Assembly (NCBI RefSeq): GCF_030028105.1
Contig: NC_092384.1
Span: forward strand, 26,233,629-26,297,628
Direction of reading: 5' to 3'
DNA length: 64,000 nucleotides
Origin: Mobula birostris
Lineage: Eukaryota
Part shown: one piece after another, positions 1 to 59,245 of the stretch
Layout: each line of letters begins with the position of its first letter
Position numbering within the stretch: position 1 is the first letter of the stretch
Notes under the pieces: model-generated
Told to the model about the DNA's origin: nothing
Seen by the model: the letters and a program-made list of their open reading frames with translations, nothing else
The model's database searches: none
Translations under genes and position numbers: made by a program

Positions 1-551
1 TGGGCCGAAGAGCCTGTCACTGTGCTGTGGTACACTATGATTCTGTAATCTACAGTCAGTTATAGATCTTTAAGAAAAAAAGTGTTTGATTTCAGAATAT
101 GCTGCCTTTGATAAGTCCAACATCTTGCTTCCACTCCGTGTTGCCCATGCAGTGATTTCCATACGGCTACAGAGATCCAGCACAGGCTCTTCAACTCATC
201 AAGCCTGACTGATCACCCCACATCATGTTTCCATCACCTAACCACCCTAATCCTACCATCACGCATTTTGTCCAAATTTCCATCAACCCACCTACACCTA
301 GATGAGGACAAGCAGATGTACAAGATGTTGGTTAGGCTACACGTGAACAATGAGTGCAGTTCTGATCACTACACTATTGAACCCCGGTGTTTGAATCCAT
401 CTTCATTATCCCTGATAACATCATCTAAATACCTAGTGGCATGGAGTCAATGTAATTATCGATATATCTCTGTCATTCCTTCAATATCAATCCCAGCTAA
501 AGGGAACATCTACCTCCTATAAAAGCTGAGAGACAGATATTCTATTCCCAC

Positions 552-1517
552 TGGTGCAGCTCAGGGGTGTGTGCTTAGCCCACTGCTCTACTCTCTATAT
601 ACACATGACTGTGTGGCTCGGCATAGCTCAAATACAATCCATAAATTTGCTGATGATACAACCATTGTTGGTAGAATCTCAGATGGAGACGAGAGGGTGT
701 ACAGGAGCGAGATATGCCAACCAGTGGAGTGGTGTCGCAGCAACAACCTTGTACTCAATGTCAGTAAAACAAAAGAGCTGATTGTGGACTTCAGGAAGGG
801 TAAGATGAAGGAACGCATACCAATCCTCATTGAGAGATCAGAAATGGAGAGAGTGAACAGTTTCAAGTTCCTGGGTGTCAAGATCTCTGAGGATCGAACC
901 TGATCCCAACATATTGATGCAGCTATAAAGAAGGCAAAACAGAAAATATACTTCATTAGGAATTTGAAGAGATTTGGTATGTCAACAAAAACACTTAAAA
1001 ACCTCTATAAATGTACCATGGAGAGCATTCTGACAGGCTGCATCACTGTCTGCTATGAGGAGGCCACTGCACAGGATTGAAAGAAGCTGCAGAGGGTTGT
1101 AGATTTAGTCAGCTTCATCTTGGGTACTAGCCTGCAAAGTACCCAGGACATCTTCAAGGAGCGGTGTCTCAGAAAGACAGCGTCCATTATTAACCTCCAG
1201 CACCCAGGACATGCCCTTTTCTCACTGTTACCATCAGGTAGGAGGTACAGAAGCCTGAAGGCACACACTCAGTGAGTCAGGAACAGCTTCTTCCCCTCTG
1301 CCATCCAGTTGCCAAATGGACATTGAACCTGTGAACACTACCTCACTTTTTAAAATACATATTATTTCTGTTTTTGCATTATTTTTAACCTATTCAATAT
1401 ATATATAGTAATTGATTGATTGATTCTCTTCTATATTATATATTGCATTGCACTGCTGTTGCTAAGTTAACAAATTTCACGACACATGCCAGTGATAATA
1501 AACTTGATTCTGATTAT
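552..1517 (+). mobile_element. 5'-truncated Rex1/Babar-like LINE (RT fragment plus (ATTCTG)n tail)
   Basis: ORF 571-903 reads LSPLLYSLYTHDC...KFADDTT...KTKELIVDFRK...SFKFLG; ends with AATAAA plus gattctgatt tail. Confidence 0.8.
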
Positions 1518-1679
1518 AAAACTGTTAAAACTATTACTAACTAAAGTATCAACTGTGGGAGCACTGAAATTGATATCATTTGTGACATCAGCACAAGAAC
1601 GTGAATGACCCCCAACCTCATCAACAATAGACACTCATTATTATCAGATATTGCAACAGCTCCAGAAAGGAGGAAGGAG

Positions 1680-2070
1680 ATGTTCATCATGATGTTCCCT
1701 GGAATGAAGGTCTTTAGTTATAAGGAAAGATTGGATAGGCTGGGATTGTCCTCACAGGAGTGCAGGAATCTGAAGGGTTTATAAAAGAATGAGGGGATGA
1801 GGTTGGGTACAGTCACAGCACATTTCCAGAGGTAGGGGACTCTAAAACTACAGGACATGGATTGAAGTGAGGAAGGAAAGGTTTAAAGGAGATCTGAGGA
1901 GAATGTTTTTCACACGGGGTGGTGAATATGTGGACGGGCCTCTGGAGAAGAAGGTAGAGATGGATGCAATCCCAGCATTCTTGAAGCATTTGGACAGGTT
2001 GATGTGTAGGACAGGATGAGGGCCAAAGTGTAGATGAATTTCTTGTCTGGCATGGACAACTTGGGTCAAC
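1680..2070 (+). mobile_element. Old CR1 LINE 3' fragment (mirror copy ~38460-38850)
   Basis: Degenerate CR1 3' motifs: ttataaggaaagattggataggctggg ... tttaaaggagatctgagg ... tttttcacac. Confidence 0.6.
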
Positions 2071-2345
2071 TCAGGAGCCTGGGAAGAGCACATCAGATAA
2101 TACCCTGTGACCTGAAATGGAATTAATGCCTTATGGAAAGAAAACACTTCTAATAGTTCACTGCTCTTCAGCATTGTACTAAAGTGGCATGTTGGATTTT
2201 GTGCTCAGATCTCTGCAGTAGGACACAAATGTACAGCTTTCTGACTGAGAATGCTATTCATTCAGTCAGGACTAACATGAAACTAAATAAGGTGACTTTA
2301 AAGAAACATTGCGAAAGGTGGATCCAAATCCCATTTCAGTGATGG

Positions 2346-2387
2346 CGTCAGAGTGACGTTGAAGTTAATAAATCCAGTCGATATAAA
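2346..2387 (+). promoter_or_regulatory. Putative AgRP copy 1 core promoter: CRE half-sites (CGTCA 2346-2350, TGACG ~2354-2358) and TATAAA 2382-2387
   Basis: TATA lies ~105 nt upstream of a donor cag|GTAAAT (2492/2493). The intron ends at cctgcag (2664), 5 nt before the ATG, consistent with a short non-coding first exon. Confidence 0.55.
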
Positions 2388-2669
2388 CTAGGAACTGTGA
2401 ACACAGGAGTTCAAAAAAGAATAGCAGCTCTCAGCAACCACCGACTGGGGAAGGAAAAAGTTCACTTTCACTTCATGAGCTGTTCCTTGCAGGTAAATGG
2501 AGATTATTAAATCAAAGTGATTTCTGAGATCCAACTTCAGCAGATGCGTTATACGCTGATGATAGAGAGAGTAGGGTTATTGCTCAGTGTATTAATAGAA
2601 ACAGATTATTTTTCTTGTGGTGGGGTGTTGCTGCCCTGCTGAGTGTTGTGCCATTATCCTGCAGGTATC

Positions 2670-2826
2670 ATGGTTAATGCCATGCTGCTCTACTGCTGTG
2701 CTCTACAGCTCATTCTCTGCTTCGGTGCCATCAGAGCTGAACTGGATTCCAACGCCATTAGAGATGTGACCACAAATGCCGACTTTACATCCCTGAGCAG
2801 GGGCAAGACCCTATTTTCTGCTGCAG
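2670..2826 (+). CDS. agrp: Agouti-related protein copy 1, coding exon 1 (signal peptide)
   Basis: MVNAMLLYCCALQLILCFGAIRA... hydrophobic signal; 157 nt; phase-1 donor gcag|GTGGGT. Confidence 0.88.
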
Positions 2827-3550
2827 GTGGGTATTAACCATCTCCATTTAATTCTGCACTCTCTGCATTAATCCTGGTCTGAGGCTCTCAGCGTGACTAA
2901 TTATCTACTGCTTCAGTCGCAGTTGACTGTTGCATTTTATCCAAGAATATTGAATGGATTTATGACTCCAGTGGGAGAGCGTGGTACAGGGTCCACATAG
3001 GAAACCTACAAAAATATATTTCACTGGAAGAAAAATAAGTGACCAGCTCTTGTTTAAAGTGAAGCCAATACTCTCATTCAATGTACATAGGCAGTTTGTT
3101 AGAGTAGTCTCTAATTAGCAATGTAGAACTCATTTTGGATATCCCTGACATTACACCCAGAACATACTTCTGTTGTGCTCTGTCACCTTTAGAAATAATT
3201 TACTCTTAAACCTCACTTTACCATTAAGTGAGTCTCCTGTATGGCTGAGAGTCTGTTGGAGATTGAGTGCCTTTCTATTGTCTCTTATTCTTTGTTCTTA
3301 CAGTTCACTCTGTCAGTTTTGTTTGTCAGTACTCACTTAATTCTTCGGTTCTTCTCCAAACTTCTGGGGAATGTTAATGTGGTAGAACACAAATCCTTTG
3401 AGAAAGAAAGAGAATGGTTTGTGCGGCAGCCTTTATTTTAGGTCAATATTATTGCCATCTACCAAGTCACCATTTCATGCACTGAAATTTAATGTTTGCA
3501 TGAACAACAGGATAGACATTTGACGAATTCTGTTAATGTTGTGAATTCAG

Positions 3551-3618
3551 GTCCACTGACTAAACCCACATTGGAAAAAGAACATCAAATGTCAGAAAAG
3601 ATTATGCTCAAATCTGAG
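3551..3618 (+). CDS. agrp: Agouti-related protein copy 1, coding exon 2
   Basis: ttcAG|gtcca...tctgag|GTAAAT; 68 nt; phases join exons 1 and 3 in frame (GPLTKPTLEKEHQMSEKIMLKSE). Confidence 0.8.
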
Positions 3619-4397
3619 GTAAATCCAGTTTTTATATAGTATCGTTCCAAAGGCAGAGTGACTGATATCCAGCAAACTGATTAAGTTTTAATTACATTTC
3701 AAATTTGACTTTTTATAACAAATATTGTAAAATATAATACGATTTAAAGCTGAAGCATCAGCAGTTCAATTAAATTCTGTTATTCACTGTTCTGGCCCAA
3801 CATTAGTACACAATCATCTGCTATTTAATATTTAGGATTCTTTAATATGAATTGTGCTTATTTAATATAAAATTGTTTCTTAGTTAAAATAAATGAAAAT
3901 TATGAATGAGGAAATATTCTCACACAGTTTTTAATCCCAACGTCACTCTGACATTGGGGTACCTTAGGTGTTTCTGCGATCATGTTCTGTCCTCTCCAGC
4001 ACCAGCAAGACCTGCATTTTTCAGCCTCAACTAATCTGTTATGAGGACATTTCTGTTGCCTTGTGTTTCTTAAAGCAGAGTAAGCTGGAGACATCTGCCT
4101 ATTGACAGGCTTAGCTCTGCTGAATGCCAAGACACCCTCCTTACCCGGGCTAGCCCAGGTTGGTTTAACCACTCCCTGACTTATGTATGGAAGAGGTAAT
4201 GCTGGTTTACATAGTCCCAGGGTTACAGCATTATATCTCCTTAAAGAACGAGGAGACCACTTGGCTCACAGGGTATATAGTTGGTAGTCCATGCTTAAAT
4301 GTTAAATGCGACTAGTTGTTCTTGTTGCAGAATTGGAGAAATTGAAAATGGTATGTGACATTTCATATTCTGTAAACTTTAACATTTTCCCTTACAG

Positions 4398-12593: not shown

Positions 12594-12956
12594 AAAAAGA
12601 TTGTTCTGGAAGACCAAATCAGCTGGCCTCAGCCCTAGTAAGTGCTAAACTCTCCGGAGACATACAGTATACAGTCACCTTGCAACACACACAAAATGCT
12701 GGAGCATCTCAGTAGGTCAGGCAGCATCTATGGAGGGGAATAAAGAGTCGATCTTTCAGGCTGAGACCTTTCATCAGGATTGGAAAGGAGAGGGGAAGAA
12801 GCCAAATGAGAAGGTGGGGAAGGAGTACAAGCTAAAAGGTGATAGGCGAAGCCAGGGTGAGGGGGAAGGTGGGTGGCGGAGGGGCGGAATGAAGTGAGGA
12901 GTTTGTAGGTGGATAAGGCAAAGGGCAGTAGGAGAAGATATTTTTGTTTTTTGATT
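12594..12956 (+). other. Templated insertion copied from ~15398-15742 into chymotrypsinogen A exon 3
   Basis: Near-identical direct copy (aaagattgttctggaagacc...ggagaagatat), plus short filler and loss of 12 exon nt (WVVT). Confidence 0.92.
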
Positions 12957-15046: not shown

Positions 15047-16789
15047 GGGTCTAGTTGCCATGAACTTTATAATTCAAAGTCATGAATAAAAAATGCTCTG
15101 TGTGCAAATGTTAATGACAGCATATGTTGCTTATTCCTTTTCCAAGTAAACAAACATTATACAAAGTTGTGCAGACTCTGGAAAAATGGCAATTATCCTA
15201 AACAAATGCAAATAAGGCACATATGGTCTTTGACGCATAACTTCTCAGCTCTCTGCATTCTAGCACTTGATCACAATGAGTTGCCGGTAAACACTTGCAC
15301 AGGTCAATGCAGTTCAGTGGCTGCTTTCCGAGCATCAGCGTCTTCACATTCAGTTGCTCTGATCCATCCCCATTTGTTGATCCAGTAAGAAAAATACAAA
15401 GATTGTTCTGGAAGACCAAATCAGCTGGCCTCAGCCCTAGTAAGTGCTAAACTCTCCGGAGACATACAGTATACAGTCACCTTGCACACACACAAAATGC
15501 TGGAGCATCTCAGTAGGTCAGGCAGCATCTATGGAGGGGAATAAAGAGTCGATCTTTCAGGCTGAGACCTTTCATCAGGATTGGAAAGGAGAGGGGAAGA
15601 AGCCAAATGAGAAGGTGGGGAAGGAGTACAAGCTAAAAGGTGATAGGCGAAGCCAGGGTGAGGGGGAAGGTGGGTGGCGGAGGGGCGGAATGAAGTGAGG
15701 AGTTTGTAGGTGGATAAGGCAAAGGGCAGTAGGAGAAGATATCGGATTGAAGAGGACATGGGGAAATGCGAAGGAGGAGAGGCACCAAGAGGAGGTGACA
15801 GGCAGATTAAGAGAAGAGGGGAGTCAAAATGGGGAATGCGAAAAAGGGAGAAAGTGGGGGGGGGGGAAATTACTGGAAGTGACTGGGTGCAAACTTAATG
15901 AAGTGCAGGTGTCTTTGAGAATCAGAATTAAATGTACTGTTGCCATACAGGCCTAAGATGATCAGCCTCAACAATCTCACTGAAGTCTCACATTAACTTA
16001 TTGGTGACACTTTCTTCAAAACACTTTCAACGTCTTTTCCCAAACCTTTAATGTACCTCACTCGTGGCCCTCTGAGTTCTCTCTTTCTCCCGGTCAGGGA
16101 ACTGAGCTGGAAGCTTGCTCTACTCTCACATGCAGTGTGAAGCTGGAGAGATCTAGATGACTGCCTTGGATTGAATTACATTTTTTGGAGATTAATTTTG
16201 GGTGCTGTATGTTTCTGATAACATGAACCCCTGGGTTTCACACAGTGGGAGTGTCATAAATAACAAAGAATGATATTTATAAGGAAAGCTAGTTTTCTTG
16301 CATAAAATTCATGCATAATATTTATCATACCTTGTACGTATGAGAAAATGTCCTTACAGTTCTGATTTTCATTTAACTTCCATTTTAATAGGTGTTTAGA
16401 TTCACCTAATATAGTACCAAGAATACTTACACGTAAACAAATCAGGAGCACTAGTAGTCCACTCAGCCCTTTGATATCGTCTACCGTTCCTTATGATTAT
16501 GGCTAATCTGAATGACCCTACCTGCAGTAACCTTTTAGACTTCGGCTTACCAACAATCTATCTAACACTGCCTTAAAAATATTACAAAACTCTGTTTCCA
16601 ACACTGTTTAAGGTAGAAGGTCCTGGAAACTCATGACCTTCTGAAAGAGAAGACAATCTCCCCTCATTTCTTTCTCAATTGAGCAAAGAGTATTTTTAAA
16701 CAGCGATCCCCAGTTATAGGTTCTCCTATGAGGAAGCATCCTCTTCACATTCACTTTATCAAGTCCCCTCAGAGTCAATTGTGTTTCAA

Positions 16790-20320: not shown

Positions 20321-21977
20321 AGATTTTTTTTTCTCTTTCAGAAGGTCATAAGTTTCCAGGACCTCTGTTTCCAACGCCTTAAACAGCGTTGGAAACAGAG
20401 TTTTGTAATATTTTTAAGGCAGTGTTAGATAGATTGTTGGTAAGCCAAAGTCTAAAAGGTTACTGCAGGTAGGGTCATTCAGATTAGCCATAATCATAAG
20501 GAACAGTAGACAATATCAAAAGGCCAAGTGGCTTACAAGTGCTCCTGATTTGTTTACATGTAAGTATTCTTGGTACTATATTAGGTGAATCTAAACACCT
20601 ATTAAAATGGAAGTCAAATGAAAATCAGAACTGTAAGGACATTTTCTCACACGTACAGGGTATGATAAATATTATGCATGAATTTTATGCAAGAAAACTA
20701 GCTTTCCTTATAAATATCATTCTTTGTTATTTATGACACTCCCACTGTGTGAAACCCAGGGGTTCATGTTATCAGAAACATACAGCACCCAAAAATAATC
20801 TCCAAAAAATGTAATTCAATCCAAGGCAGTCATCTAGATCTCTCCAGCTTCACACTGCATGTGAGAGTAGAGCAAGCCTCCAGCTCAGTTCCCTGACCGG
20901 GAGAAAGAGAGAACTCAGAGGGCCACGAGTGAGGTACATTAAAGGTTTGGGAAAAGACGTTGAAAGTGCTTTGAAGAAAGTGTCACCAGTAGGTTAATAT
21001 GAGACTTCAGTGAGATTGTTGAGGCTGATCATCTTAGGCCTGTATGGCAACAGTACGTTTAATTCTGATTCTCAAAGACACCTGCACTTCATTAAGTTTG
21101 CACCCAGTCGCTTCCAGTAATTTTCCCCCCTCCACTTTTTCCCTTTTTCGCATTCCCCATTCTGAATCCCCTCTTCTCTTAATCTGCCTGTCACCTCCTC
21201 CTGGTGCCCCTCCTCCTTCGCATTTCCCCATGTCCTCTTCAATCCGATATCTTCTCCTACTGCCCTTTGCCTTATCCACCTACAAACTCCTCACTTCATT
21301 CCGCCCCTCCGCCACCCACCTTCCCCCTCACCCTGGCTTCACCTTTTAGCTTGTACTCCTTCCCCACCTTCTCATTTGGCTTCTTCCCCCTCCCTTTTCA
21401 ATCCTGATGAAGAGTCTCAGCCTGAAAGATCGACTCTTTATTCCCCTCCATAGATGCTGCCTGACCTACTGAGATGCTCCAGCATTTTGTGTGTGTTGCA
21501 AGGTGACTGTATACTGTATGTCTCCGGAGAGTTTAGCACTTACTAGGGCTGAGGCCAGCTGATTTGGTCTTCCAGAACAATCTTTGTATTTTTCTTACTG
21601 GATCAACAAATGGGGGTGGATCGGAGCAACTGAATGTGAAGACACTGATGCTCGGAAAGCAGCCACTGAATTGCATTGACCTGTGCAAGTGTTTACCGGC
21701 AACTCATTGTGATCAAGTGCTAGAATGCAGAGAGCTGAGAAGTTATGCGTCAAAGACCATATGTGCCTTATTTGCATTTGTTTAGGATAATTGCCATTTT
21801 TCCAGAGTCTGCACAACTTTGTATAATGTTTGTTTACTTGGAAAAGGAATAAGCAACATATGCTGTCATTAACATTTGCACACAGAGCATTTTTTATTCA
21901 TGACTTTGAATTATAAAGTTCATGGCAACTAGACCCTATAAAACCAATCATCAGTCTCTTAAAGAATGTTATAAGCT

Positions 21978-22177
21978 TGCTGGGCACGTGGACTCAAGGT
22001 CACAAATTTGAGCCTCAGCTGTGGCAGCGTGGTTTGTGCCTTTGAGCAAGGCACTTAATCACACATTGCTCTAGTCTGTGCGAGGAGTGGCGCCCCACAC
22101 AGGCTTCCAATCTGCGCCTTGTAAGGCATGAGAATGCCCGACGCAGGCCTCTCAAGGTCTGAGTCGACGTTCCCCCC
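21978..22177 (+). mobile_element. CORE-type SINE inserted in the 5'UTR of chymotrypsinogen copy B
   Basis: Absent from copy A (ataagctcaccATG). Flanked by taagct/taagtt, and contains CORE-like ctttgagcaaggcacttaa. Confidence 0.75.
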
Positions 22178-22414
22178 TAAGTTCACCATGGCGTTTCTCT
22201 GGCTTCTCTCCTGCTCCGCTTTCATTGGGGTCACCTATGGTAATATCACTTGAAATTAGAATTCTAGTTTTAACCATTGGAACAGAGGGTGCCGTGTTGA
22301 ATGCAATTAGCAACATTTACATAGAGCAACTGCTTCTCTCCACCCAGGTGCAGGCTGCGGATCTCCAGCCATCACCCCGGTTCTGTCAGGCTACAGTCGA
22401 ATTGTCAATGGTGA

Positions 22415-23658
22415 ACAATCAGCAGCCATGGGCTCTTCTAAGCAGCTGCCTAGAACTCTGAAAATTAAAATAAATGATGCCCACAAAGCAGGAAAAGGCT
22501 ATAAGAAGATAGCAAAGCGTTTTCAGGTAGCCGTTCCCTCAGTTCGTAATGTAATTAAGAAATGGCATTTAACAGGAACGGTGGAGGTCAAGTTGAGGTC
22601 TGGAAGACCAAGAAAACTTTCCAAGAGAACTGCTTGTAGGATTGCTAGAAAGGCAAATCAAAACCCCTGTTTGACAGCAAAAGATCTTCAGGAAGATTTA
22701 GCAGACTCTGGAGTGGTGGTGCACTGTTCTACTGTGCAGCGACACCTGCACAAATATGACCTTCAAGGAAGAAAAACTTTCCTGCGTCCTCACCACAAAA
22801 TTCAGCATCAGAAGCTTGCAAAGGAACATCTAAACAAGCCTGATGCATTTTGGAAACAAGTCCTGTGGACTGATTAAGTTAAAATAGAACTTTTTGGCCG
22901 CAATGAGCAAAGGTATGTTTGGAGAAAAAAGGGTGCAGAATTTCATGAAAAGAACACCTCTCCAACAGTTAAGCACGGGGGTAGATCGATCATGCTTTGG
23001 GCTTGTGTTGCAGCCAGTGGCACGGGGAACATTTCACTGGTAGAGGAAAGAATGAATTCAATTAAATACCAGCAAATTCTGGAAGTAAACGTCACACCAT
23101 CTGTAAAAAAGCTGAAGATGAAAAGAGGATGGTTTCTATAACAGGATAATGATTCTAAACACACCTCAGAATCCACAATGGACTACCTCAAGAGGCACAA
23201 GCTGAAGGTTTTGCCATGCCCCTCACAGTCCCCCGACCTAAACATCTTCGAAAAACTGTAGGTAGACCTCAAAAGAGCAGTGCATGTAAGACGGCCCAAG
23301 AATCTCACAGAACTAGAAGCCTTTTGCAAGGAAGAATGGGTGAAAATCCCCCAAACAAGAATTGAAAGACTCTTAGCTGGCTACAGAAAGCGTTTACAAG
23401 TTGTGATACTTGCCAAAGGGGGTGTTACTAAGTACTGACCATGCAGGGTGCCCAAACCTTTGCTTCAGGCCCTTTTCCTTTTTTGTTATTTTGAAACTGT
23501 TAAAGATGGAAATAAAAAAGTAATCTTACTTAAAATATTAAAGAAATGTGTCATCTTTAACTTCATGCCTTTTGGAAATCAGGTCATCTTTTACTCGCTT
23601 AGCTATTCACAGTAACAGAAATTTTGACCAGGGGTGCCCAAACTTTTGCATACCACTG
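22415..23658 (+). mobile_element. Tc1 (DD34E-type, IR/DR) DNA transposon; left end deleted, transposase carries internal stops
   Basis: ORF 22428-22877 (HTH domains, GRPRK, WTD) continues past stops as VKHGG, QDND.KH, SPDLN..E to ..TKY* at 23438. Direct repeats gggtgcccaaac at ~23446 and ~23632; terminus cactg-TA. Confidence 0.93.
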
Positions 23659-24263
23659 TATTTAGAATAGGCCCTTCCAGCCCTTCGAACCACATTGCCC
23701 AGCAACACTCGATTTAACCCTAACCTAATCACTAGACTCACCAGCTGGTGGCATAGTGGCATCAGTGCTGGACTTCAGCGCAAAGGCTCCCAAGTTCGAA
23801 TCCAGCCGGCTCCCTTGCACGCTTTCCATCCATGCTGGGTTGAACGTCCAGCTAGCAACTTGGCTTTGTAAAAATACGAAAGCCTTAGAACTGTTGAAAT
23901 TGCTACAAAAGGCCAAATAATTCTGTATTTATATTGCATCCTGTTTGGTTAATAGACACAGTAATGGGCAATACTTGCTGCTCTTTGCCCAAAAGGTGAA
24001 GTTATATGAAGAGCTGTCTCTGCTCATTCCTGTTTGACAGATTAAAAAGTAAATATGTTTGCATTCCAGTTTTAAAACAACAGGATTATTTTCTTTAAAT
24101 AATCCTGTTTTGCCTTCAGTCACCACAACTCTCGAAAAAATTATCTATTTTCCTAATTTTGAATATTACAGAGGTTTTCCTGAAGTGTCTTTCATTTGTC
24201 GGAAAGTGAACTCAATGCCATTGTTTGGGGTGCACAGTTTCCCTCTCTGTCCCACCCAGTCTA

Positions 24264-24306
<43 letters not shown>

Positions 24307-27300
24307 TCTCTCTCTTTCTCACCCTCTCTCTCTCTGTCTCACTCTCACTCTCTCGCACTCTCTTTCTCACCCTCTCTCTCTGTCTCTCTTGTTTCTGTCA
24401 ATTAATTTTTTATCTGTCCTAATATATGTTTGTCTGTTTTTATTTAACAAGCTTCACGTGAATTACTTTCTTAAAACCTTGATGTAATATAGACTTTCTA
24501 CAATATGCTACTAAATCACTATTTATCTTCAACAAATCCAAGCTGGCTATTCTCAATTAATGTATTTCTGAATTCTTACTAATTGTGGGAAATTATAAAT
24601 TCTCAGAGTTGATCCTTAAATGTCCTCATACCAGTTGGTTTATGATTACTTGGCCTATCTTTCTCTATCCTTTGATTAGTAATTCTCCAGTGCTAAATGG
24701 CAATTTGAATACTAAGATTACATCATCCTCCTTTACAAATTATTTCGACTGCATGGAGCTTCCTGATTCCTTCATTTTAGAACTGCTCCCTTCCTGCAGT
24801 GACATATCCCTCTGTGTAGCATCCAGATTCTCATTCCATTAGTACTTGCATCATATAATCCAGTGCTTAATATCTTGCTGCCATTTCATCTTGCACAATT
24901 CATCTCCATCTCTCCTCTCAGATTGGTTCCAGGCTCTCTTTACTTTAAATATTCTTCAGGAAAATAGCTTATATCCCCATAAACTTCCTTACATTATCTT
25001 TTATTCATTTTTCAAACTCCCTTTAAGCAATTCTTATCCAACTTTTCAGATTTCCACATCATTTTCTAAATCCCACTTAACTGTTCTTGGTATTACAGTA
25101 TTAGCCCTATTTCTAATCATATGTTTCATTTAAAATTAAAGTTTAGTTTTACAGTAGTTATTTATTGCAACTTTAGAACTTTGCTCTTCAACGAATTTCT
25201 TTGAATTCATGATCCAATGACGTTCGATAACTTCCTTGTTATATTATGAGTCTTGTTTCCTTTTATCCAATTTGCAATCTGGAGTCACTGTCAACTTTCA
25301 ATAAAACTACTTCTGTATGGTGGAGGAAAACTTAAGATGTTTTTATGGTAATACTGAGCATTCTTTTTCCTCGTGTAACAGAGTGACTCTGGTCGGCATT
25401 TCCGCGGCAGTTCCTTGATCAATGAAAACTGGGTTGTCACCGCTGCACATTGTGGCATGAGGTAAGTCTTAACACCTACAAAGAGAGAAAGAAATGTGCT
25501 GGTGAATCCTTCTCTAATTCCTGAGGGATGATGCAGCTTTAACTGATATTTTTGTTCAAAGTGATATATGAGGCAAAGAAAAATTGCTCTTGTGGGCATG
25601 AACATTGACTTAACGAGGGAAGATCCTTGCATGAATAGTTTGGGAAATCGTTGACTGGAAAGTACAATTTTCACTCCACCCCCACCCCCACCCCTGATGA
25701 AGTTTGGAGTTGCTGGTATCTTGCAACAAGCAAACTCTGTCACTGCTTTTGTTTTTCTTTTGTCACATACAGTACGAACGACTTTGCTATTGTTGGTGCC
25801 CATCACAAAAGCTCAAAAACTGAAGCCAGCCAGAAATCCATGTCCATTGCTAAGGTACGTATCTCCCTGTAAAACTAGGAATTTGTTTGAATTCAGGTCA
25901 AATTTGGGCTACAGTACTGTTAGGATCCAAAATGATGTGCAGAGATGGATGCCATACAGACAGAACACAGGATCTTAGTAAGGGGTGTCCATTACCGAAA
26001 GTGGTTTCAATCTCCAATATGAATATGCCTCGCCATGATAAACTTCATAGCACCAAGAATAGAATCACTAGATATTGATAACAAGCAAAAGCAAGAATTA
26101 TTTCAGGTGCTGCTGAAGATGATAAAAGATTGTTACACATCACCTCCCTCAGGCGTTGGGGCCCCAGTTCTAATCAGATTAATTTTCCTCTGCACTAGCC
26201 CCAATACCCTGACACATGGGCCTTCCAGCAATAAATGTTACTTGCAGTGTAGTAAGTGAAAAGACAAACTCAGTCATAAGGACAGACATGAAGCAAACAG
26301 ATTAGACATTTCATGTTGGAATGCATGGCATAGAGTGGCCATTGATCCTGGCGTCCTGTTCACTAAGGGTTGCCTGTAAAGCCCATCAAGGAATTTGATA
26401 ATGTGTGGGTTGGTATAAGGTCCAGTCTTTGGGATGTATGCCAGAATGCCAGTGTCTGATATGGCCGCACACATGGTAACGTTTGAACCTCTATAGATTG
26501 GTAGCAGGACTGGCACCCTTTTCTCTACATGATTTGTCCTTTGTCTCCTTGTCTTAGATAAGGTTGGGGTATCAACAGATTACCAACGATTGCTTAATTC
26601 ATTGCATTTTGAGTCAATGATTTGGGATTGATTGCTGACACTTCTGAATGATTTTTGCATCTTCTTTTTGTCTTCCGACCACCGTTGTGTCCTGGTGTCG
26701 AGTGGTTTGCAAGAAGTTCATTAGCATTTGAGACAGATGTACATGCAATGAGAAATTGTTGTCTATTGTGCTGAGGTGATTGCTGTTTTGCTCATATAGA
26801 GTTTAGAAATGAGTACATGAACTGCTGGCTTGATTGAAGTGTCTAGGCAACTGAAAAAAAACTAATTATCCCAAAAAAGTTAATCAAATTCAGAAAGGAA
26901 AAACTGAAGAAGTTTTATACAAGATGACAGCACCAGTGTAATGGTAAACCACAGAATACAGCCACTTATTTCCACTTCCAGCTTGTAAGTCTATTTATTT
27001 TTCTTTAAATTGCTGACTTTGTTTTCTAATGAAGGGCTTTTGAATTCTATTTTGAATAAGCAATTCCCCATTCATGAGTGCAGCTGCATTGACATGAAAT
27101 CCAGGAGAGTCTGAAGTTATCGGTCTCAAGCAAGTGCCAACTCTAAAAGATGAGTACTAGGCACAGCCATCATCCATGTTCTCTCTGTTACAGGTCATTA
27201 CACACCCCAAGTGGAACCCCTCCACCATTAATTATGATGTTTCTGTGGTGAAGCTTGCAACCCCCGTTCAGTTCAACAGTCATGTGTCGCCAGTCTGTCT

Positions 27301-27699
27301 CGCCGCTGTATCTGATAACTACCCTGCTGGCATGATGTGTGTCACAACGGGATGGGGAAGGACTCGTGCTTACCGTACGTCAGTTCAAAACTTTACAAAT
27401 TACAGTGTTGCAGTTCCGAGCTCTGTGCCTTTGTACCCTTACCCTGACAGGGAGCAGTGGATAGATTCCCAAGATGATTGGCAATCTGGAAGGTTATGCT
27501 ATGAATAATACTTCATGGCTGCATGGTCAAGGAACAGGATAATTCTGTTCATCAGAGGGATATTGTGGGCTTCTACAACTGATCCAGTGATAGGGTGTTC
27601 ACAGTGTCATATAGATTGGAAATGGGTCCTTCTGCCCAATTGGTCCAAGCAGACTAAGATACCCCATCCAATTTAGTGCCATTTGCCAATGTTTGGCCC

Positions 27700-27920
27700 A
27701 TAACTTTCTAAACCTTTCCAATCCACAGACTCATAGCCTTCCAAATCTTTCAAAACCATAGACCCATAATCTAACTCTTTCCAATCCATGGACCCATAAC
27801 CTTCTAAACCTTTCTGATCCATGGACCCATATCCTTCTAATCCTTTCCAATCCATGGTCCCATAACCTTCAAAACCTCTTTAATGCATGCATCATAACTT
27901 TCTAATCCTTTCCAATCCAG
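27700..27920. repeat. ~33-bp minisatellite derived from the CR1 3' end (~7 units; ~4 units at 9100-9230 and 46310-46435)
   Basis: Repeated ccatggacccataaccttctaaacctttccaat-like unit; ORF 27673-27855 shows periodic MDWKGLEGYGS. Confidence 0.8.
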
Positions 27921-30900
27921 GTACCTGTCCAACTGTCTTTTAAAAGTTGTCATTTTATTTGCCTTACCACTTCTTCTGGTAGCTGATTCTGCATAGATAC
28001 CACCCTTTGTGGAACGAAAAAGGTTGTCTCTCAAGTTTCTTTGAAATCTTTCCACTCTCACCTTAAACCTATGCCCTCTTGGTCTTGATGTCCCAACTCT
28101 GGGGAAAAAGATGGAATACATTCACCCTATCTTTGCCACTCATGATTTTATACCTCTCCATAAGATCATCTTCAGTCCTCTATGCTGTAAGGAATAAAGT
28201 CCTAGCCTCTTCAACCTCTCCCTATAATTCAGTTATTCAAATCCTGGCAACATCCTTATAAATCTTTTTTATACCTCTTCCAGTCTAACAACACCTTTAC
28301 TACAGCAAAGCGACCAAAAATGAATACAAATTCCAAGAGCAGTCTTACCAGCATCCAATACAACCACAACATGACATGACTTCCCAACTTCCCTACTCAT
28401 TGGTCTGAGAGATAAAGGCCAGTGTGTCAAAAGCCTTCTTCACCTCCTCACCTACCTGTGACTTGCACTCTGCTCTACACCACTCCCCAGTGCCCTGCCA
28501 TTCACTGTGAAAATCCTACCTGGATTTGACTTTCCAAAATATAGCACTTCATATTTATCTGAATTCAATCCAATTTTCCACTTTTTGCCCCATTTACCCA
28601 GTTGATCAAGATCTGCCTGTAATTTTTGATAACCCTTTTCCATTGTCCACTATACCACCTGCTTTAATGTTGAATGCAGACTTATTAACCGTGCCTTGCC
28701 CAGATTATTATCCAAATCATTAATAAACAATGGGCTCAGCACAGCCCCTGAGGCACACTATTTGTCATGTGTTTCTAGTCCAATAAGCAACCTTCTACCA
28801 TCACCCTTTGCTTTCTACCATCAAGACAATCATGTATCCAATTAGCCAGCTCTCTCTGCATTCTATGTAATCTCACCTTCCGGAGCAGCCTACCATGTGG
28901 AACTTAATCAAAGGCCTCACTGAAGTCCATAGAAACTAGATCTACCACCCTCCCCTCATAGACTTTCTATGACACATACTCAATCAAGTTCGTAAGACAT
29001 GATCTCCCATGCACAAAACCATACTGATCTAATCAATTCCTGACTTTCCAGATTGACATATATTTTGTCTCTCAGAATCCTTTCCAGTAACTGACAGATG
29101 TTAGGCCTACTGCTTTATAGTTCCCAGGTTTTTCTTTGCCCTCTTCTTAAATAAAGGCACAACATTTGCTACTCTCCTGTCTACTGTCTCCTCAGTTGTG
29201 GCTAACGATGATGCAAATATCTCAGACAAGGCTCCCACAATTTCTTCTCTAGTTTCCCATAGTCTTCTCTGATAAACCTGGTCAAACCTGTTGATTTGTC
29301 TACTTTCCTACCTTTTAAGTCATACAGCACCCTTCTACTGTAATGCAGACTATCCCCAAGACAACTCCATTTAAATTTCTTAGTTGTTAAGTCTTCATGC
29401 AACTCTCTATGGGAAAAAAAAACAGAGGAGAGATATTCATTAAGGACTTTGCCTGCCTCCTGTGGCTCCACACAAAGATATGTCCCTGTGATCTTTGAGG
29501 GGCCTTATTCTGTTTCTATGTTAATATACTTATACAATCACTGTAGAATTTTGTTAATACTCTCTGTCAAAGTTCCCTCATGCCCCCTGTTTGCCCAATA
29601 TCCCTCCAGAGATTTACTTGATCCCAGCTGCTTGTACCTAACCCATGCCTCCTTTTCTCCAGGGTCAGGGCCTCAATATCCCTCATTATCCAATGTTCCG
29701 TACTCCTGCCTGCCTTGCCCTATGCTCCAACAGGAACATGCAGGCTTTGAGCTCTCACTAGATCACATTTAAAAGACTCCCACTTACCTGTGGGCTCTGT
29801 GCCAATAAACTACCTACTCCAAACAATCGCTGTATCCTCCTGTCTCATACTGTTAAAATTATCCTTGCCCCAGCTTAGAACTTGAACCTGTGGACCAGTT
29901 CTGTCCCTTTCCATAACCCTTTAATAACTAATAGAACTATAGTCACTGGTCCCTAATTGCTCCCTCAGTGTCTCCTTCCTAAGTCTAGGTCGAGTTTTGG
30001 CCTCTCCATTGTCGGACCCTCAGTATACTGTCCAAGGTATCTTCCTTGAAATCACCTTAAGCCCTTAACTGTATGTATGTTCCTCAGTATTTTAGGAAAG
30101 TTTAAATCTCCTTCAAGAATACTCCTATTATTCTTGCATCTCTCGACAATCTCCCTGCATGTTTATTCCTCTACTTCCCGTTCACAATTGGGAGGCCTAT
30201 AGTACAATCCCAACATTATTTCTCGGCTCCACCCACAAAGCCTCACTGGACGATCCTTCAATAAACCACAAACCTGATGCAGTCTGTCCATTCCAGAGTC
30301 ATTTGTCGGGTACTCGACTTGAACATCAGCAAAGGTAAATTTTCAAAGAAACAGCAACTTAGAGATATATGGTCATCAATCAATTTGTGCTGACATTGGA
30401 AAACATAGTTTTTAACAGATTGTGGAAAGAATTCCTGAGTTAGCTTCTTGCTTTATTTGTTTTAACATAATATTATTGCATCATAGGATAACTTCACTCA
30501 CCTCAACTCTGAACTGATACCACACTCACTTTCATGGACACTGAAATCATATATTCTGTATTTATTTATTTGTTTATTTATTTTTGCACAGGTTGTTTTC
30601 CTATGCACAGTGGCTATTTGTATTTGTTAATGTAGCTTTTTCATAAATTCTATTGTACTTGTAAGTGCCCGCAAGAAAAATGAATCTCAATTTGGCACAC
30701 GATGACATATACGTACGAACTTTCATGATAAATTTACTGACACGTTGACTTTACTTTTAATCAGACTGAATCAGTTATATGGAGGAGAGAAGCAAATCCT
30801 AGGGGCCTAGATAGAGTGCCGTGGACAGGATGTTTCCTAGAGTGGAGGAGTCTAAGAGCAGTGGGCTCAGGCTCACAATACAAGAATGCTCCTTTAGAAC

Positions 30901-30924
30901 AAGGATGAGGAGGAAATTCTCTCC

Positions 30925-31740
30925 AACCCCAGGCCTCTCAGAATCCCCCGTCACTTTTTGGGACTTCAGAGCCACCATCTTCTTCCCACCCTACCTTCCC
31001 AGAACACCCTAACCCTCCACCAACTCCCCAACTCTTTCTGCACTACATTGACAACTGCATAGATGCTGCCTCACACCTACATGCTGAGCTCATCAATTTC
31101 ATAAACTTTGCCTTCAACTTCCACCCTACCCTTAAATTCACTTGGTCCATTTCTGACACCTCCCTCCCCTTTCTCAATCTTTCTGTCCCCATCTCTGGAG
31201 ACCAACTATCCACTGGCATCTTTTATAAACCTGGTGATTCCCACGGCTATCTTGACGATACTATTTCCACCCGATCTCCTGTAAAAACGCCATTCCCTTT
31301 GCTCAGTTCCTTCACCTCTGTCACATCTGTCCCAGGGATAAGGATAAAGAACGGGGTTTCTCTTCCTCACCTGCATCTCCTCCATTTCCCGGACATCCAC
31401 GTCCACCCCATCTTCCTGCCACCTGAACAGGGATAGAGTTCCTCTTGTCCTGACCTGTCACCTCATGAGCCACTGCACCCAACGCATCATTCTCCACAAA
31501 TTCCGCCGTCTGCAAAGAGATCCTACCACCAACACATCGTTACCTTCCCTCCACTCTCCACATCTTCAGTGGGATCCTAGCACCAAACACATCTTTACCC
31601 CGCCTCCCCCACTATCCGCGTTTCATAGGGATTGCTCCCTCCATGATTCCTTTGTCCATTCAGCCCTCCCCACTAGTCTCTCTCACATATCCCTGCATGC
31701 AACAGAAATGCTACATCTCGCCGTTCACCTCCTCCCTGTC
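30925..31740 (+). mobile_element. Internally deleted Penelope-like fragment, intron 5 of copy B
   Basis: Matches 6290-7010 and 45060-45155 in inverted orientation. Confidence 0.75.
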
Positions 31741-33445
31741 CTGGAAAGAAAAGCCTTATCCTGGCAATAGATACAGTGGAAGCACAAGAACTGAGAAAAG
31801 GGAGACAGGCCGGAAAGAGGTATAGTCAATCAGTAGGTTTATAAATGGTTTCTAATGGTTGAAAATATACCCTTTTACTTTCATTGGAATATGACCCTTA
31901 AAAAAATAAAGCAAAACTGATTGAAGTATCATCTAACGTTTTCACAGCTGCTGAGCGACCTAACAAACTTCAGCAAGCTGCTCTTCCTCTCCTCTCCAGC
32001 GTGAACTGCAGGAACTACTGGGGTAGCAGTGTCACCGATGTCATGATCTGCGCTGGGGCAGCTGGTGCCTCGTCTTGCATGGTATGAAACCTTTTCAAAG
32101 TACTTCAACCTCTTTCAAGTTGCAAAAAGGCAATGAGACCAAGTCTGAGGCTGTGACTCGTTTACAGGGTGACTCTGGCGGCCCACTTGTCTGTCAGAAG
32201 GACAACGTCTGGAACTTGGTTGGCATCGTTTCCTGGGGCAGTGGCTATTGCTCCACCAGCACTCCTGGTGTCTATGCCCGCGTGACGGAGCTCAGGGACT
32301 GGATCGATAGCACCATTGCTGACAACTAAGTGCAAATCAACATGTGAAATGCAAATGAAAATAAATGGACTTCTTCAACATGAATTCTAAACCTGTGTTG
32401 TACTTTAAGGCCTGTCTGGAAATATAAGTTATTAATAAATCTAAGTAATATATGAGTTATAGGGAAAGGGTGAATAAGTTAGCAGCATAGGAGAATGAGC
32501 GGGGATTTGCTTGAGGTGTACAAAATTATGAAAGGTATAGATAGGTTAAATGCAAGCAGGCTTTTCTCCCTCAGAACACAAAATAATCTGCAGATGCTGG
32601 GGTCAAAACACCACTCACAACAGGCTGGAGGAACTCAGCAGGTCGAAAACTGGTAATGCCAAACCCATGAGATAATCAATCTCAGGTTCTAAATTTGTAC
32701 CAGACTGAGATTCTAGAAGCAGCTTCCGCAAGCAGAAGTATATTTCAGCAACATGAGTGCCCTCTAGGTCATCGCTATCAACTAAAGATGAACAATATTT
32801 AAATTTTTAATTGGTAAGATATTGCAGAATTGAAATTACATTTCTTTCTTCTGTTTATTTAAGTAGACATGGTTAAAGTTTCTGTTCAAAGTGCAAAGAA
32901 AGACACTTCTGTGTAATACATTTGTATTCTACAAAATGTAACAGAGTCCTTCACCTCCCCCCAAATAACTGGTAGCAAATTTAAGGAATTTTGTAATTGC
33001 CCTTTAACCGTATGGTAAAAATTGAGCTTTAAGTTAGCCAAATAAATCACCAAATTCTCTCTGTCATTAGAAATTTTGGGGCATTTGTGACAAATTACTG
33101 GTAGATCCATTATTTCCTATCACAACAGGAGTTTAAGAAAAGTTTGCACAGGTACAAGGATAAGAGGGGTATAGAGGGCTATGGTTTAGGGACTAGGCAG
33201 AAGACCAGTTTGGCATGGACTAGATGGGCTGAAGAGCCTATTTCTGGGCTGCAGTGCTCTATGACTCTCTCACACTAAATTACAAGCTGAGCTGGGCTGC
33301 ACTCCACTGCAAGTTTGTCCTTCTCATCAAAGTAAAACGTTTGTTTCAACTGCAAACTTACAAGTTGCACATGGAAAGCAACATAACATAATATAAATCT
33401 GTTTATATCTAAAACAGAAAAGTTGTCAAGAGGACAACTACAAAG

Positions 33446-54520: not shown

Positions 54521-56102
54521 GGACTCATGATCCATTGACGTTTGATAACTTCCTTGTTTCCTTTTACCCAATTTGCAATATGGAGTCACTGTCAACTTTC
54601 AATAAAACTACTTCCATATGGTGGAGAAAAACTTAAGCTGTTTTTATGAGCATCCTTTTTCCTCGTGTAACAGACTGACTCTGGTCGGCATTTCTGCGGC
54701 GGTTCCTTGATCAATGAAAACTGGGTTGTCGCCGCTGCACACTGTGAAGTGAGGTAAGTCTTAACACCTACAAAGAGAGAAAGAAATGTGCGGTGAATCA
54801 TTCTCTAATTCCTGAGGGATGATGTAGCTTTAACTGATATTTTTGTTCAAAGTGATATATGAGGCAAAGAAAAATTGCTCTTGTGGGCATGAACATTGAC
54901 CTAACGAGGGAAGATCCTTGCATGAATAGTTTGGGAAATCGTTGACTGGAAAGTACAATTTTCCCTCCACAACCCCCACTCACCCCGACCACTGATGAAG
55001 CTTGGAGTTGCTGGTATCTTGCAACAAGCAAACTCTGTCACTGCTTTTGTTTTTCTTTTGTCACATACAGTACGAACGACTTTGCTATTGTTGGTGGCCA
55101 TGACAAAAGCTCAAAAGCTGAAGCCAGCCAGAAATCCATGTCCATTGCTAAGGTACATTGCTCCCTGTAAAACTAGGAATTTGTTTAAATTCAGGTCAAA
55201 TTTGGGCTACAGTACTGTTAGGATCCAAAATGATGTGCAGAGATGGATGCCATACAGACAGGACACAGGATCTTAGTAAGGGGTGTCCAACACCAAAAGT
55301 GGTTTCAATCTCCAATATGAATATGCCTCGCCATGATAAACTTCATAGCACCAATAATAGAATCACTAGATATTGATAACAAGCAAGGCAAGAATTATTT
55401 CAGGTGCTGACAAAGATGATAAAAGATTATTACACGTCACTTCCCTCAGGCATTGGGGCCCCAGTTTTAATCAGATTAATTTTCCTCTGCACTAGCCCCA
55501 ATACCCTGACACATGGGCCTTCCAGCAATAAATGTTACTTGCAGTGTAGTAAGTGAAAAGACAAACTCAGTCATAAGTACAAACATGAAGCAAACAGATT
55601 AGACATTTCACGTTGGAATGCATGACTCTCTGGAAATGTCAATGCTGACAAATCATTAGGCTCACAGCCAGAACAAAATGAGGTCAGTCTCAAGACTGTT
55701 GAATACTTATAGCTTGGAACCAACAAAATAAACTAAAGTCTTATTCCTATCTCACTTATATCAAGTGAGAGCTAACTTAAGTCATTAATGCTTGGTATTA
55801 TGGCCATTTTAGATCAAATTAAAAGAGAACATACTATTAGCCCTATTACAGTTTTTCTCAGCCGCTTAACGACACAGTTCAAAACAGTAGCCACATTCTC
55901 TAAACAGTTGACACAGGCTGCAAAAGACTAATCCATTGTGCGAAACTCCTCATCCTCACTGCAAATTACACTCAGCAAGTCAAAACAATAAATATTTGCA
56001 GCAAAAGTGAATAATTCAATTAAAACAGTAGCACACAGCATTACATCACTAACATATATCAGTGATCACTGGGTAATCACTGGCAACACACTGGCCATCC
56101 TT

Positions 56103-59100
56103 ATCTTTCTTTTCTTTTTAAATCTTTTTATTAATTTTTCAAAATTATAAACTCAATAACAAAGTTGGTACAAAGAGATTGGAATAATATTCATCAGCAT
56201 ATATAAAATGAATTTTAAGTAACATAGATATAAAAGACTTCCAAACTCATAATGAAATTAATCATTAAAAAAAAGAAATAAAAAGAAAAAATATATATAA
56301 ACAAAAAAAACCCAAAAGAAAAAGAGAAAAAAAAACCCCAAAAAAAACAAAACAGGGCTAGACCAACAGCTTGTATCAGACACGTTCAATAATGTTGTTA
56401 ACTCTGCTCTTCTCATCATATAATTTAAGTTTAGAAAAAAAATTCGGAATGGTCAGATTGCATCATATGAAAACGTTGCATAAGAGGTTTCCAAGTTTCT
56501 TCAAATTTAACCAAAGGGTCAAAAATATCACTAATTTTTTCTAAATTTAAACTTAATATGGTTTGAGAAAACCATTGGAATGTAATTGGAGGATTAGTTT
56601 CCTTCCAGTTCAACAAAATAGATCTTCTCACCATTAAAGTAACAAAAGCTATCATTCGACAGGCTGAAAAAGACAAAGATCTATGTTCTACCATTGGCAA
56701 TCCAAAGATTGCCGTAATAGGATGAGGTTTTAAATCGAAGCATAGAACTGTTGAAATAATATCAAAAATGTCTTTCCAATATTTTTTCCAAAAGAGGACA
56801 GGACCAAAACATAGGAGTTAAAGAAGCCACTTCAGAGTGACATCTATCACAAGTAGGGTTTATATGGGAATAAAAACGAGCTAGTTTATCTTTGGACATA
56901 TGAGCTCTGTGTACTACTTTAAATTGTATTAATGTATGTTTAGCAGATATAGAAGAAGTACTAACTAATTGAAAATTGTTTTCCCATTTCTCTATAGGTA
57001 GGGAAAGTTGAAGTTCCCTTTCCCATTCATTTTTGATTTTATCAGATATATCTGGCTGTAATTTCATAATTATATCATAAATTACTGCTATTAATCCCTT
57101 CTGCAAAGGATTAAAACCTAAAATTTTATCAAAAATGCCAGAAGGATTTGAAGTCCGAAAGGTCGGCAACCTAGTATTTAAAAAATTTCTTATTTGTAGG
57201 TATCTTAAAAAAATGGGATCTAGGCAAATCAAATTTCTCAGATAATTGCTCAAAAGCAGTTATCCAGAAATAGATCACGAAAACATATTATACCTTTCGT
57301 TTTCCATATCAGAAAGGCTTGGCCCATTACTGAGGGTTGGAAAAAGAAATTAAATATAATAGGGCTTGATAACATAAATTCATTCAGGCCAAAAAATTTA
57401 TGAAATTGAAACCATATTCACAATGTATGTTTAACTATAGGGTTAAAAATTTGTTTATTCAATTTAGATAGTGCAAAAGGCAGTGAAGTTCCTAAAATGG
57501 AAGCTAAAGAAAACCCTTGTACAGAATGGCCTTCAAGGTTTACCCAATATGGGCTTGGAGTTGTATTCCAATCTTGTGTCCAAAATATTAAATATCCGAT
57601 ACTAATTGCCCAGTAGTAAAATCTTAGAATAGGCAATGCCAAACCACCTTAGGTTTCTGTAAGTATTTAGGTTTCTGTAAGTATTTTTTACTTAATCTGG
57701 GATTTCAATTTTGCCATATATAAGAGGAAATTTTAGAGTCAATAGTATCAAAAAAAGATTTAGGAATAAAAATCGGTATCACTTGAAATAAATAGAAAAA
57801 TTTGGGTAAAATAATCATTTTAATAGCATTAATACGGCCAATCAGTGATAGAGACAAAGGGGACCATTTAGTAATCAGTTGTTTAACCTGATTAATTAAT
57901 GGTAAAAGGTTGAAATTGAATAGATCCTTATGTCTCTTAGTAATTTTAACTCCCAAATAAGTAAAATAGTCAGTAATCACTCTAAATGGAGAGTTTCTAT
58001 AAATGGGAACCTGCATATTTAATGCAAAGAGTTCACTCTTACCTTGGTTCAATTTATAACCAGAAAAACTACTAAACTGAGCAAGCAAAGTTAATACTGC
58101 CGGAATAGATTTTCCTTGGTTAGAAATATATAATAGTTAATCAGCTGCATCTCGTGATAAGTTATGAGTCTCATTTCCACGGGTAATGCCAAATATATTA
58201 GGGGAGTCACAAATGCCAAAAGCTAGCGGTTCCAAGGCAATATCAAATAGTAGTGGACTAAGAGGGCAACCCTGCCTAGTACCACAGAATAAATGAAAAA
58301 AAGGGGATCTTTGATTGTTAGTAAATACCGAGGCCAAAGGAGTAAAATATATCAGTTTAATCCAGGAAATGAATATCGGACTAAAATTAAATTTCTCAAG
58401 GGTATTGAATAAATATATCCATTCAACTCTATCAAAAGCTTTCTCAGCATCCAATAAAATAACACATTCTGGAATTTTGGGTGAAAGTGTATAAACAATA
58501 TTCATTAATCTCCTAATATTAAAAAAAGAGTAACGGTTTTTAATAAATCCAGTCTGATCAGCAGAAATAATTTGGGGTAATACATTCTTCAATCTCGTTG
58601 CCAATATTTTAGAAAGAATCTTAGAATCAACATTCAACAGAGATATATGCCTATAAGATGCACATTCAGTAGGATCCTTATCTTTTTAAAGAATTAGGGA
58701 AATAGAAGCTCGATAAAAAGATTGTGGTAATTTACCTATTGACAATGCATCCCTAAAAACACTACATAGCCAAGGAGTCAGTGTAGTTGAGGAAAATTTT
58801 TAAAATTCTACAGTAAATCCATCTGAGCCAGATGCTTTACCTGAGTTCATTGAAAAAATAGCATTCTTTATTTCCTCTACTGTAATAGGTACATCTAGTT
58901 TTGAACGTTCATTAGATGATAATTTTGGAATATTCAGTTTCTTAAAAAATTCATGCATTATAGTGGAGTCATCAGGAAATTCTGATTGATATAGGGAGGT
59001 ATAAAATTCTTGAAAGGATTTATTAATCTCATCATGGTCAACTGTCAAAGTGCCATCTTGTTCACGAATCTTAAGAATCTGTCGTTTAACCAATGCCAAT

Positions 59101-59245
59101 TTCAATTGATTAGCTAAAAGTTTCCCAGTTTTATCACCATGTATATAAAACTGACTCTTAGTTTTGATTGATTGACTTTCAATCGAAGATGATAATAAGA
59201 GATTATGTTCCATTTGAAGTTCAGCTCTTTGTTTATAAAGTTCTA
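56103..59245 (-). mobile_element. 5'-truncated L1-clade LINE with 10-bp target-site duplication, nested in the intron-4 DNA transposon of copy D
   Basis: GGCCATCCTT at 56093-56102 and 59246-59255; RT motifs DAEKAFDRVEW and GTRQGCPLSP; A-rich tail. Confidence 0.93.

Follow-up and report, generated by a model that had tools for sequence, protein, structure and literature searches.

Copy B of the chymotrypsinogen array of Mobula birostris is a broken gene duplicate that has come to lie in frame with a fragment of a dead Tc1 transposase, and it is likely (a probability of about 0.86) a non-functional pseudogene carrying a chimeric open reading frame (ORF) produced by chance. The pseudogene reading is favoured because one intact gene, copy A, adjoins four copies that are each broken in a different way. 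The locus lies within a stretch of 64,000 nt from contig NC_092384.1 of assembly GCF_030028105.1 (positions 26,233,629 to 26,297,628, forward strand), hereafter the window, whose numbering is used throughout (Table 1).

Table 1. Positions of the features of copy B and of the broken chymotrypsinogen copies within the window.
Feature	Position	Strand	Remarks
Copy B promoter and start of 5′ UTR	21345–21977	+	TATA at 21937; 633 nt, 97.8% identical to intact copy A
SINE, sense orientation, between TATA box and exon 1	21978–22177	+	200 nt
Exon 1 CDS, signal peptide	22188–22239	+	Donor GTAATA; F10S relative to copy A
Intron 1	22240–22353	+	GT-AG intact
Exon 2 remnant	22354–22415	+	62 of 104 nt; activation peptide, R/IVNGE; PDB chymotrypsinogen match
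Deletion junction	22414–22415	+	AA common to exon 2 and Tc1 5′ UTR
Tc1 (Sleeping Beauty-like) without left end	22414–23658	+	Right arm with two 18-nt direct repeats
Transposase codons 1–153, then premature TAA	22428–22877	+	12-nt in-frame deletion near 22768
Donor-like AAG/GTATGT	22910–22918	+	8 of 9 consensus positions; 35 nt past stop
Distal DDE-domain remnant	22878–23438	+	Stops at 23139 and 23259
AATAAA in Tc1 right arm	23511–23516	+	From sequence
Copy B exon 3	25382–25461	+	Splice sites intact; HFRGS in place of HFCGG
Copy B exon 4	25773–25854	+	Splice sites intact
Copy B exon 5	27194–27374	+	Splice sites intact
Copy B exon 6	31948–32081	+	Splice sites intact
Copy B exon 7	32168–32329	+	Splice sites intact
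Copy B (focal copy)	22188–32329	+	Exon 2 truncated, Tc1 in intron 2
Copy C	15001 to 5692	−	Exon 3 interrupted; GDSDDP instead of GDSGGP
Copy D	48788 to 41027	−	Without exons 1, 2 and 7
Copy E	54659–62767	+	Without exons 1, 2 and 5

Architecture and origin of the fused frame

The original prediction, a chymotrypsinogen prepro-peptide in frame with the paired-like DNA-binding region of a Tc1 transposase, is borne out by the sequence and by Pfam and PDB matches. Splicing of exon 1 (CDS 22188–22239) to the AG acceptor at 22354 yields the 191-aa frame that had been proposed, ending in WTD and a stop, while counting from the ATG at 22128 in a SINE gives 211 aa; the TATA box at 21937 (TATAAAA) and the AATAAA at 23511 are likewise present as claimed. 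The stop (22875–22877) does indeed replace E154 of the transposase, directly after the WTD motif, whose Asp we take to be the first of the DDE triad. In the fused part, the Pfam profiles HTH_SB and HTH_Tnp_Tc3_2 both exceed their cut-offs. A PDB search matched residues 1–23 after the exon 2 acceptor to chymotrypsinogen and the remainder to the N-terminal domains of Sleeping Beauty (2m8e, 5unk and 6urs), in keeping with the PAI and RED subdomains of Sleeping Beauty-type Tc1 elements. The predicted protein contains 35 K+R, 11 D+E and five cysteines. The promoters of copies B and A share 97.7% identity over 477 nt, with 11 differences in 21501–21977, and the hydropathy of the signal peptide encoded by exon 1 peaks at 2.12, as compared with 2.29–2.81 in three paralogs. 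Not mentioned in the prediction were the donor-like site at 22913 and the continuation of copy B downstream of the fusion, where exons 3–7 are found (25382–32329).

The SINE is unique to copy B, being absent from copies A and C, and is flanked by a 6-nt target duplication (21972–21977 and 22178–22183) with one mismatch. It supplies in-frame ATGs at 22128 and 22134 together with three donor-like GTs (21999, 22121 and 22157), each of which scores 6/9, equal to the exon 1 donor, where donor strength is a count of consensus matches only. Its family numbers 1,533 candidates, 40 of which were scored, and the 39 other than copy B's own are 93–95% identical. From the heads of five copies compared, the head of the SINE was judged by eye to be tRNA-like and partly deleted; a search of 21900–23900 against Rfam returned no matches at E ≤ 0.1.

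The right end of the Tc1, at 23658, is followed by a TA (23659–23660), beyond which intron 2 resumes and runs collinear with copies A and C, and in copy A the insertion-site TA lies 53 nt into intron 2. On the left, agreement of the window with each of the 29 other Tc1 copies begins at 22414, and its agreement with the two paralogues extends through 22415; the overlap is a 2-nt microhomology, AA. About 465 nt are missing from the locus, namely 42 nt of exon 2, 53 nt of intron 2, the TA, and about 366–368 nt of the Tc1 left end. The Tc1 would have inserted first, at the TA of intron 2, and an end-joining deletion would later have produced the fusion, with its reading frame and 149 open codons probably owed to chance.

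Two other descriptions of the junction were ruled out. A microhomology longer than 2 nt is incompatible with the Tc1 copies, which diverge from the window left of 22414. Amplification of the junction along with the array is incompatible with its being single-copy in the assembly; the junction 23-mer has a single occurrence in 4.0 Gb with one mismatch allowed.

The captured transposase and its family

The element is Sleeping Beauty-like in its double HTH, DDE domain, TA target and terminal repeats, as well as in its right-arm direct repeats and the 340-codon frame of its family. Unlike Sleeping Beauty-type Tc1 elements, the copy B element has a deleted left arm, three stops (codons 154, 242 and 282) and a 12-nt deletion; it does not encode an active transposase and cannot transpose.

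The family is large, with at least 1,548 exact matches to a 20-nt pattern around the transposase ATG, and it was sampled through the first 90 listed matches in positional order, all on a single contig (C1). Among these, 11/90 are open for at least 149 codons from the ATG (10/78 of the copies covering the region) and 0/90 have a fully open transposase. A codon-level set of 66 copies was compiled after 24 of the 90, whose right part was not spanned in one piece, had been dropped, and in six of the 66 there is no stop or frameshift in codons 1–153. With a mean of 1.86 lesions per copy, the Poisson probability of having none is 0.16, or 0.23 when scaled to the lower divergence of the copy B Tc1 (3.2% versus a family median of 4.1%). 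The earlier estimate that the frame could be chance, at 1 in 3, counted the frame factor only and omitted the openness of the captured codons; the combined figure is about 3–8% per such deletion. A single event of this kind is thus uncommon, but in a family numbering at least 1,548 copies it is nothing remarkable.

A left arm reaching at least 340 nt upstream of the pattern is present in 76 of the 90 sampled copies, and that of copy B is deleted. Left-arm loss is seen elsewhere in the family, with 14/90 copies having an upstream match of <340 nt and 2/90 of <100 nt, and the break in one copy (L014) lies within about 10 nt of that in copy B. In M. hypostoma, the annotated 242-aa model LOC134351933 (P0001) is built from two N-terminal segments of this Tc1 family in tandem and is another of the family's pseudo-ORFs called as a gene. 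The ray family is 72–79% identical to transposases labelled as coming from eel, clingfish and swamp eel, and it has a relative of 340 aa, intact, at 90% (P0003, P0085, P0086 and P0089 for these proteins together); horizontal transfer may have occurred.

The captured part of the transposase looks neutral. Relative to the column majority, its codons 1–153 carry 11 nonsynonymous (N) and 3 synonymous (S) changes over 344.7 and 99.3 sites, respectively (pN/pS 1.06), and the distal part carries 18 N and 2 S; the fused part is indistinguishable from the pooled 980:324 of the 66 family copies (Fisher p = 1.0). The probability of observing at least 11 N among 14 changes is 0.005 at an omega of 0.2, 0.034 at 0.3 and 0.19 at 0.5, so that omega ≤0.3 is rejected and 0.5 is compatible in a test made without CpG or transition-bias correction. 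The functional fusion gene that had been envisaged is unsupported by these values. Moreover, of the 93 columns that are conserved across 11 homologous transposases, the fused part departs from 7, and the 12-nt deletion removes RVIR, whose first two residues, R and V, are invariant in 11/11 homologues. The clean front and stop-laden back of the transposase, whose comparison had been put forward as a check, do not differ enough to indicate selection (p = 0.10 for all three stops lying in the distal part and 0.19 for all lesions). Counting against the pseudogene reading, the sole indel in the fused part is in frame, in a family where just 33 of 182 indels have a length divisible by 3; the copy has also diverged less than most, and an omega of 0.5 is compatible with the data. 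Had the deletion occurred long after the insertion, the substitutions would predate the fusion and would not test selection on it, and a very recent fusion would escape selection tests.

A decaying array and its counterparts in other rays

In the 264 kb examined around the window, copy A is an intact seven-exon gene occupying the interval from about 9.5 to 1.1 kb upstream of the window, the 264-aa protein it encodes being identical to RefSeq P0099, and a diverged paralogue lies about 36 kb past the window end, with the four broken copies, each disabled in its own fashion, in between. By its sequence, the array between these two chymotrypsinogen genes is a birth-and-death array. Copy B has the seven-exon layout, the signal peptide and the CG...R/IVNG activation site of a chymotrypsinogen (peptidase S1A; Mobula "chymotrypsinogen 2-like"), but its exon 2 is truncated, its protease exons are beyond the reach of the reading frame, and its exon 3 carries C60R and G62S (precursor numbering). 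No ORF runs through the His-Asp-Ser triad, the exon 2 donor being deleted and the ORF ending inside the Tc1. Retaining introns, paralogous to an intact gene and carrying disabling lesions, copy B has the hallmarks of a duplicated (unprocessed) pseudogene. In exon 5, the neighbouring gene shows 100% identity to the M. birostris chymotrypsinogen 2-like and 92% to a Hypanus protein, and RefSeq-type models map to copies A, C and D.

The other copies have histories of their own. In copy C, at 12594–12956, exon 3 has lost 12 nt and gained a 363-nt insert, 346 nt of which are 99.7% identical to the copy's own upstream region (15398–15742), and the insert looks like a recent templated insertion; RefSeq model P0045 reads through it and also carries GDSDDP. 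In exon 5, copies C and A have remained 100% identical. The promoters of B (21500–21977) and C (15483–15006) are 99.2% identical and their exon 1–2 regions 94.1%, a contrast that points to gene conversion or to recombination in the recent past. The HFRGS lesion in exon 3 is common to copies B (25382–25461) and D (48773–48694) and, because both carry it, is older than the B/D duplication. The window as a whole is a mosaic of 90–97% identical direct and inverted duplications, for example, 1–4359 versus 40538–36143. A further match resembling exon 2 (L044), located just past the diverged paralogue at about 110206 when the window numbering is extended, is possibly another chymotrypsin-like gene.

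Two models are found in the cluster of M. hypostoma. P0102 of this species shares S10, which otherwise occurs in copy B only; its exon 2 is intact, its frame is uninterrupted where copy B has the SINE, and it has changes of its own, C210G and G212D, beside the catalytic serine. It is likely the counterpart of copy B, unfused and itself decaying, with orthology resting on one exclusive residue. ORF conservation in sister species, by which the fusion was to be judged, is not seen in this likely counterpart, where the fused ORF is absent. Protein models likewise gave no syntenic orthologue of the fusion, exon 2 being intact in M. hypostoma P0102, Hypanus P0046 and Hemitrygon P0103. No fused protein was found in homologue searches over 95–2000 aa (among the best 44 of 76 and 14 of 328 candidates) or by a motif check among 103 retrieved proteins; neither homologue search returned an identical protein, and the exact 149-aa ORF is absent from the protein collection. 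Annotation pipelines mask transposons, and for that reason a missing model of the fused protein is weak evidence.

Predicted transcripts, rival explanations and known fusions

The promoter, TATA box, exon 1 and intron 1 splice sites of copy B are intact, which makes transcription plausible and argues against the pseudogene reading. Escape of the transcript from nonsense-mediated decay (NMD), as originally proposed, is doubtful. The stop would lie in the last exon only if the Tc1 AATAAA were used, so that escape depends on that site; about 600 nt before it is the donor-like site at 22913, which scores 8/9 versus 6/9 for the exon 1 donor, and the splice sites of exons 3–7 are intact. Several exon junctions downstream of a stop are a standard trigger of NMD, and since splicing at 22913 would place several junctions past this stop, NMD is predicted. 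If the promoter fires in the pancreas, the RNA would be spliced from 22913 to exon 3 and degraded by NMD; alternatively, the RNA would end at the Tc1 poly(A) site and a signal-peptide-bearing HTH fragment would enter the ER, to be degraded there or cut by trypsin in the gut. Neither route would bring the product to DNA. The suggested analogy to repressors made of truncated transposases conflicts with the signal peptide, which directs the product to the ER, away from the nucleus; with ATG 22188 in strong context ahead of that signal peptide, ER entry and thus no repression of transposition are predicted. To call the protein "trypsin-cleavable" is unspecific, given that 31 K/R sites follow residue 33. 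Six of the 24 sequencing runs listed are RNA, each containing 0.07–0.09 of the words and none carrying the organism label of the best DNA runs; one of the six, X15, which may be from another species, yielded five contigs, all at 22414–22452 on the Tc1 side and none on exons 1–2, a result that speaks neither for nor against transcription.

The junction is known from the assembly alone, in that 22415 is bridged by none of the contigs listed in DNA runs X1, X3, X5, X9 and X21, where contigs show presence only. This, along with the maze of 90–97% identical inverted duplications in the region, is what one would cite for a junction that is not fixed in the species, whether as an allele that is private or polymorphic or as a misassembly where the repeat array was collapsed. 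A contig of run X5 (organism B) follows 22225–22415, after which 50 letters leave the window. In run X1 (organism A), a 118-nt contig is identical over 22338–22415 and departs from the Tc1 side in its other 40 letters; it may represent an allele of copy A, which has one difference from B there, or a B allele without the fusion. X1 also holds B-type sequence with 0 differences at 22150–22212 and 23944–24176, the first being a 63-nt contig over the SINE/exon 1 join with 28 letters on the SINE side, below the 31-letter threshold. Moreover, contigs drop variants: in X3, from the same sample as X1, intron 1 is covered by an A-type contig alone, and 22371–22403 is left uncovered. The anatomy is also coherent, with its TA target, collinear intron 2 on the right and 2-nt microhomology, and a junction that is unfixed or artefactual is quite unlikely.

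It is very improbable that the fusion has instead been caught at birth, made by genomic deletion and not by splicing, with a Tc1 DNA-binding region placed behind the promoter and signal peptide of a pancreatic zymogen, and too young for a selection signal, whether as a secreted, trypsin-processed basic protein or as a nuclear HTH protein obtained via a SINE donor. A functional gene just born, whose secreted basic product would be processed by gut trypsin, could draw on the in-frame ORF, the retained signal and activation peptides, the intact promoter and the Tc1 AATAAA, and its recent birth would evade a dN/dS test. Its chances are nonetheless slim in view of the lack of purifying selection, its absence from the likely sister-species counterpart, the NMD predicted from the competing donor at 22913, and the 31 tryptic sites and five cysteines, among them the pro-peptide Cys, which presumably pairs normally with a protease-domain partner lost in the fusion. 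Moreover, "signal peptide" does not appear in the main text of a vertebrate fusion survey (bioRxiv 10.1101/2020.05.07.082677). The least probable proposal is a nuclear, HTH-only protein of 149 aa translated from ATG 22428, through a SINE donor skipping exon 1 or leaky scanning, that would bind Tc1 ends as a repressor. This ATG is in frame and in good context, the three SINE GT sites match the exon 1 donor at 6/9, and both HTH profiles are still above cut-off, but ATG 22188 lies upstream in strong context, the HTH is decaying at conserved positions with the basic RVIR deleted, and a pancreas promoter would be the wrong tissue for germline control. There is also little left to repress, because none of the 90 sampled copies has a full open transposase.

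As a pseudogene with a chance chimeric ORF, copy B can be set beside several known systems. A tetrapod survey of host-transposase fusions requires an in-frame fusion, at least two exons and RNA support, and it gives purifying selection in 81/81 fusions tested, a birth mainly via alternative splicing, and KRAB as the commonest partner (bioRxiv 10.1101/2020.05.07.082677). Copy B has a transposase domain in frame with host protein sequence and at least two exons, as predicted from the GT-AG sites of intron 1, and shows no purifying selection on the transposase domain (11 N : 3 S, a comparison blind to a very recent fusion); on its predicted structure, it has the build of a host-transposase fusion but falls short of being counted among them. 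Like KRABINER, SETMAR and PGBD3-CSB, it joins host exons in frame to the DNA-binding region of a Tc1/mariner transposase, comprises two exons and has lost the catalytic domain. The known fusions, as the survey presents them, came about mainly when alternative splicing took in an insertion that was itself intact, often possess nuclear effector domains (KRAB, SET, SCAN), and are RNA-supported and under purifying selection, whereas copy B involves a genomic deletion, has a secretory leader as its host part, and is predicted from sequence with a pN/pS of 1.06 (bioRxiv 10.1101/2020.05.07.082677). Truncated Tc1/mariner ORFs are described as decaying debris in section 10 of PMC13548663, and copy B resembles such pseudo-ORFs, LOC134351933 included, in being truncated, missing an end and occurring sporadically among family copies; unlike them, it has gained a host promoter and exon (PMC13548663). 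Within the open-licence literature, neither a chymotrypsinogen-transposase fusion nor a report of elasmobranch chymotrypsin duplication or pseudogenes was found.

As a pseudogene, copy B matters little in itself, and it is a clean example of how insertion and deletion can make gene-like chimeric ORFs in a decaying array; chimeric ORFs of this kind need a family-level control. Were a transcript and a protein to be shown, copy B would be one of the rare instances in which the DNA-binding region of a transposase has been directed to the secretory pathway, and it would give a view, open to testing, of a gene being born in a cartilaginous fish.
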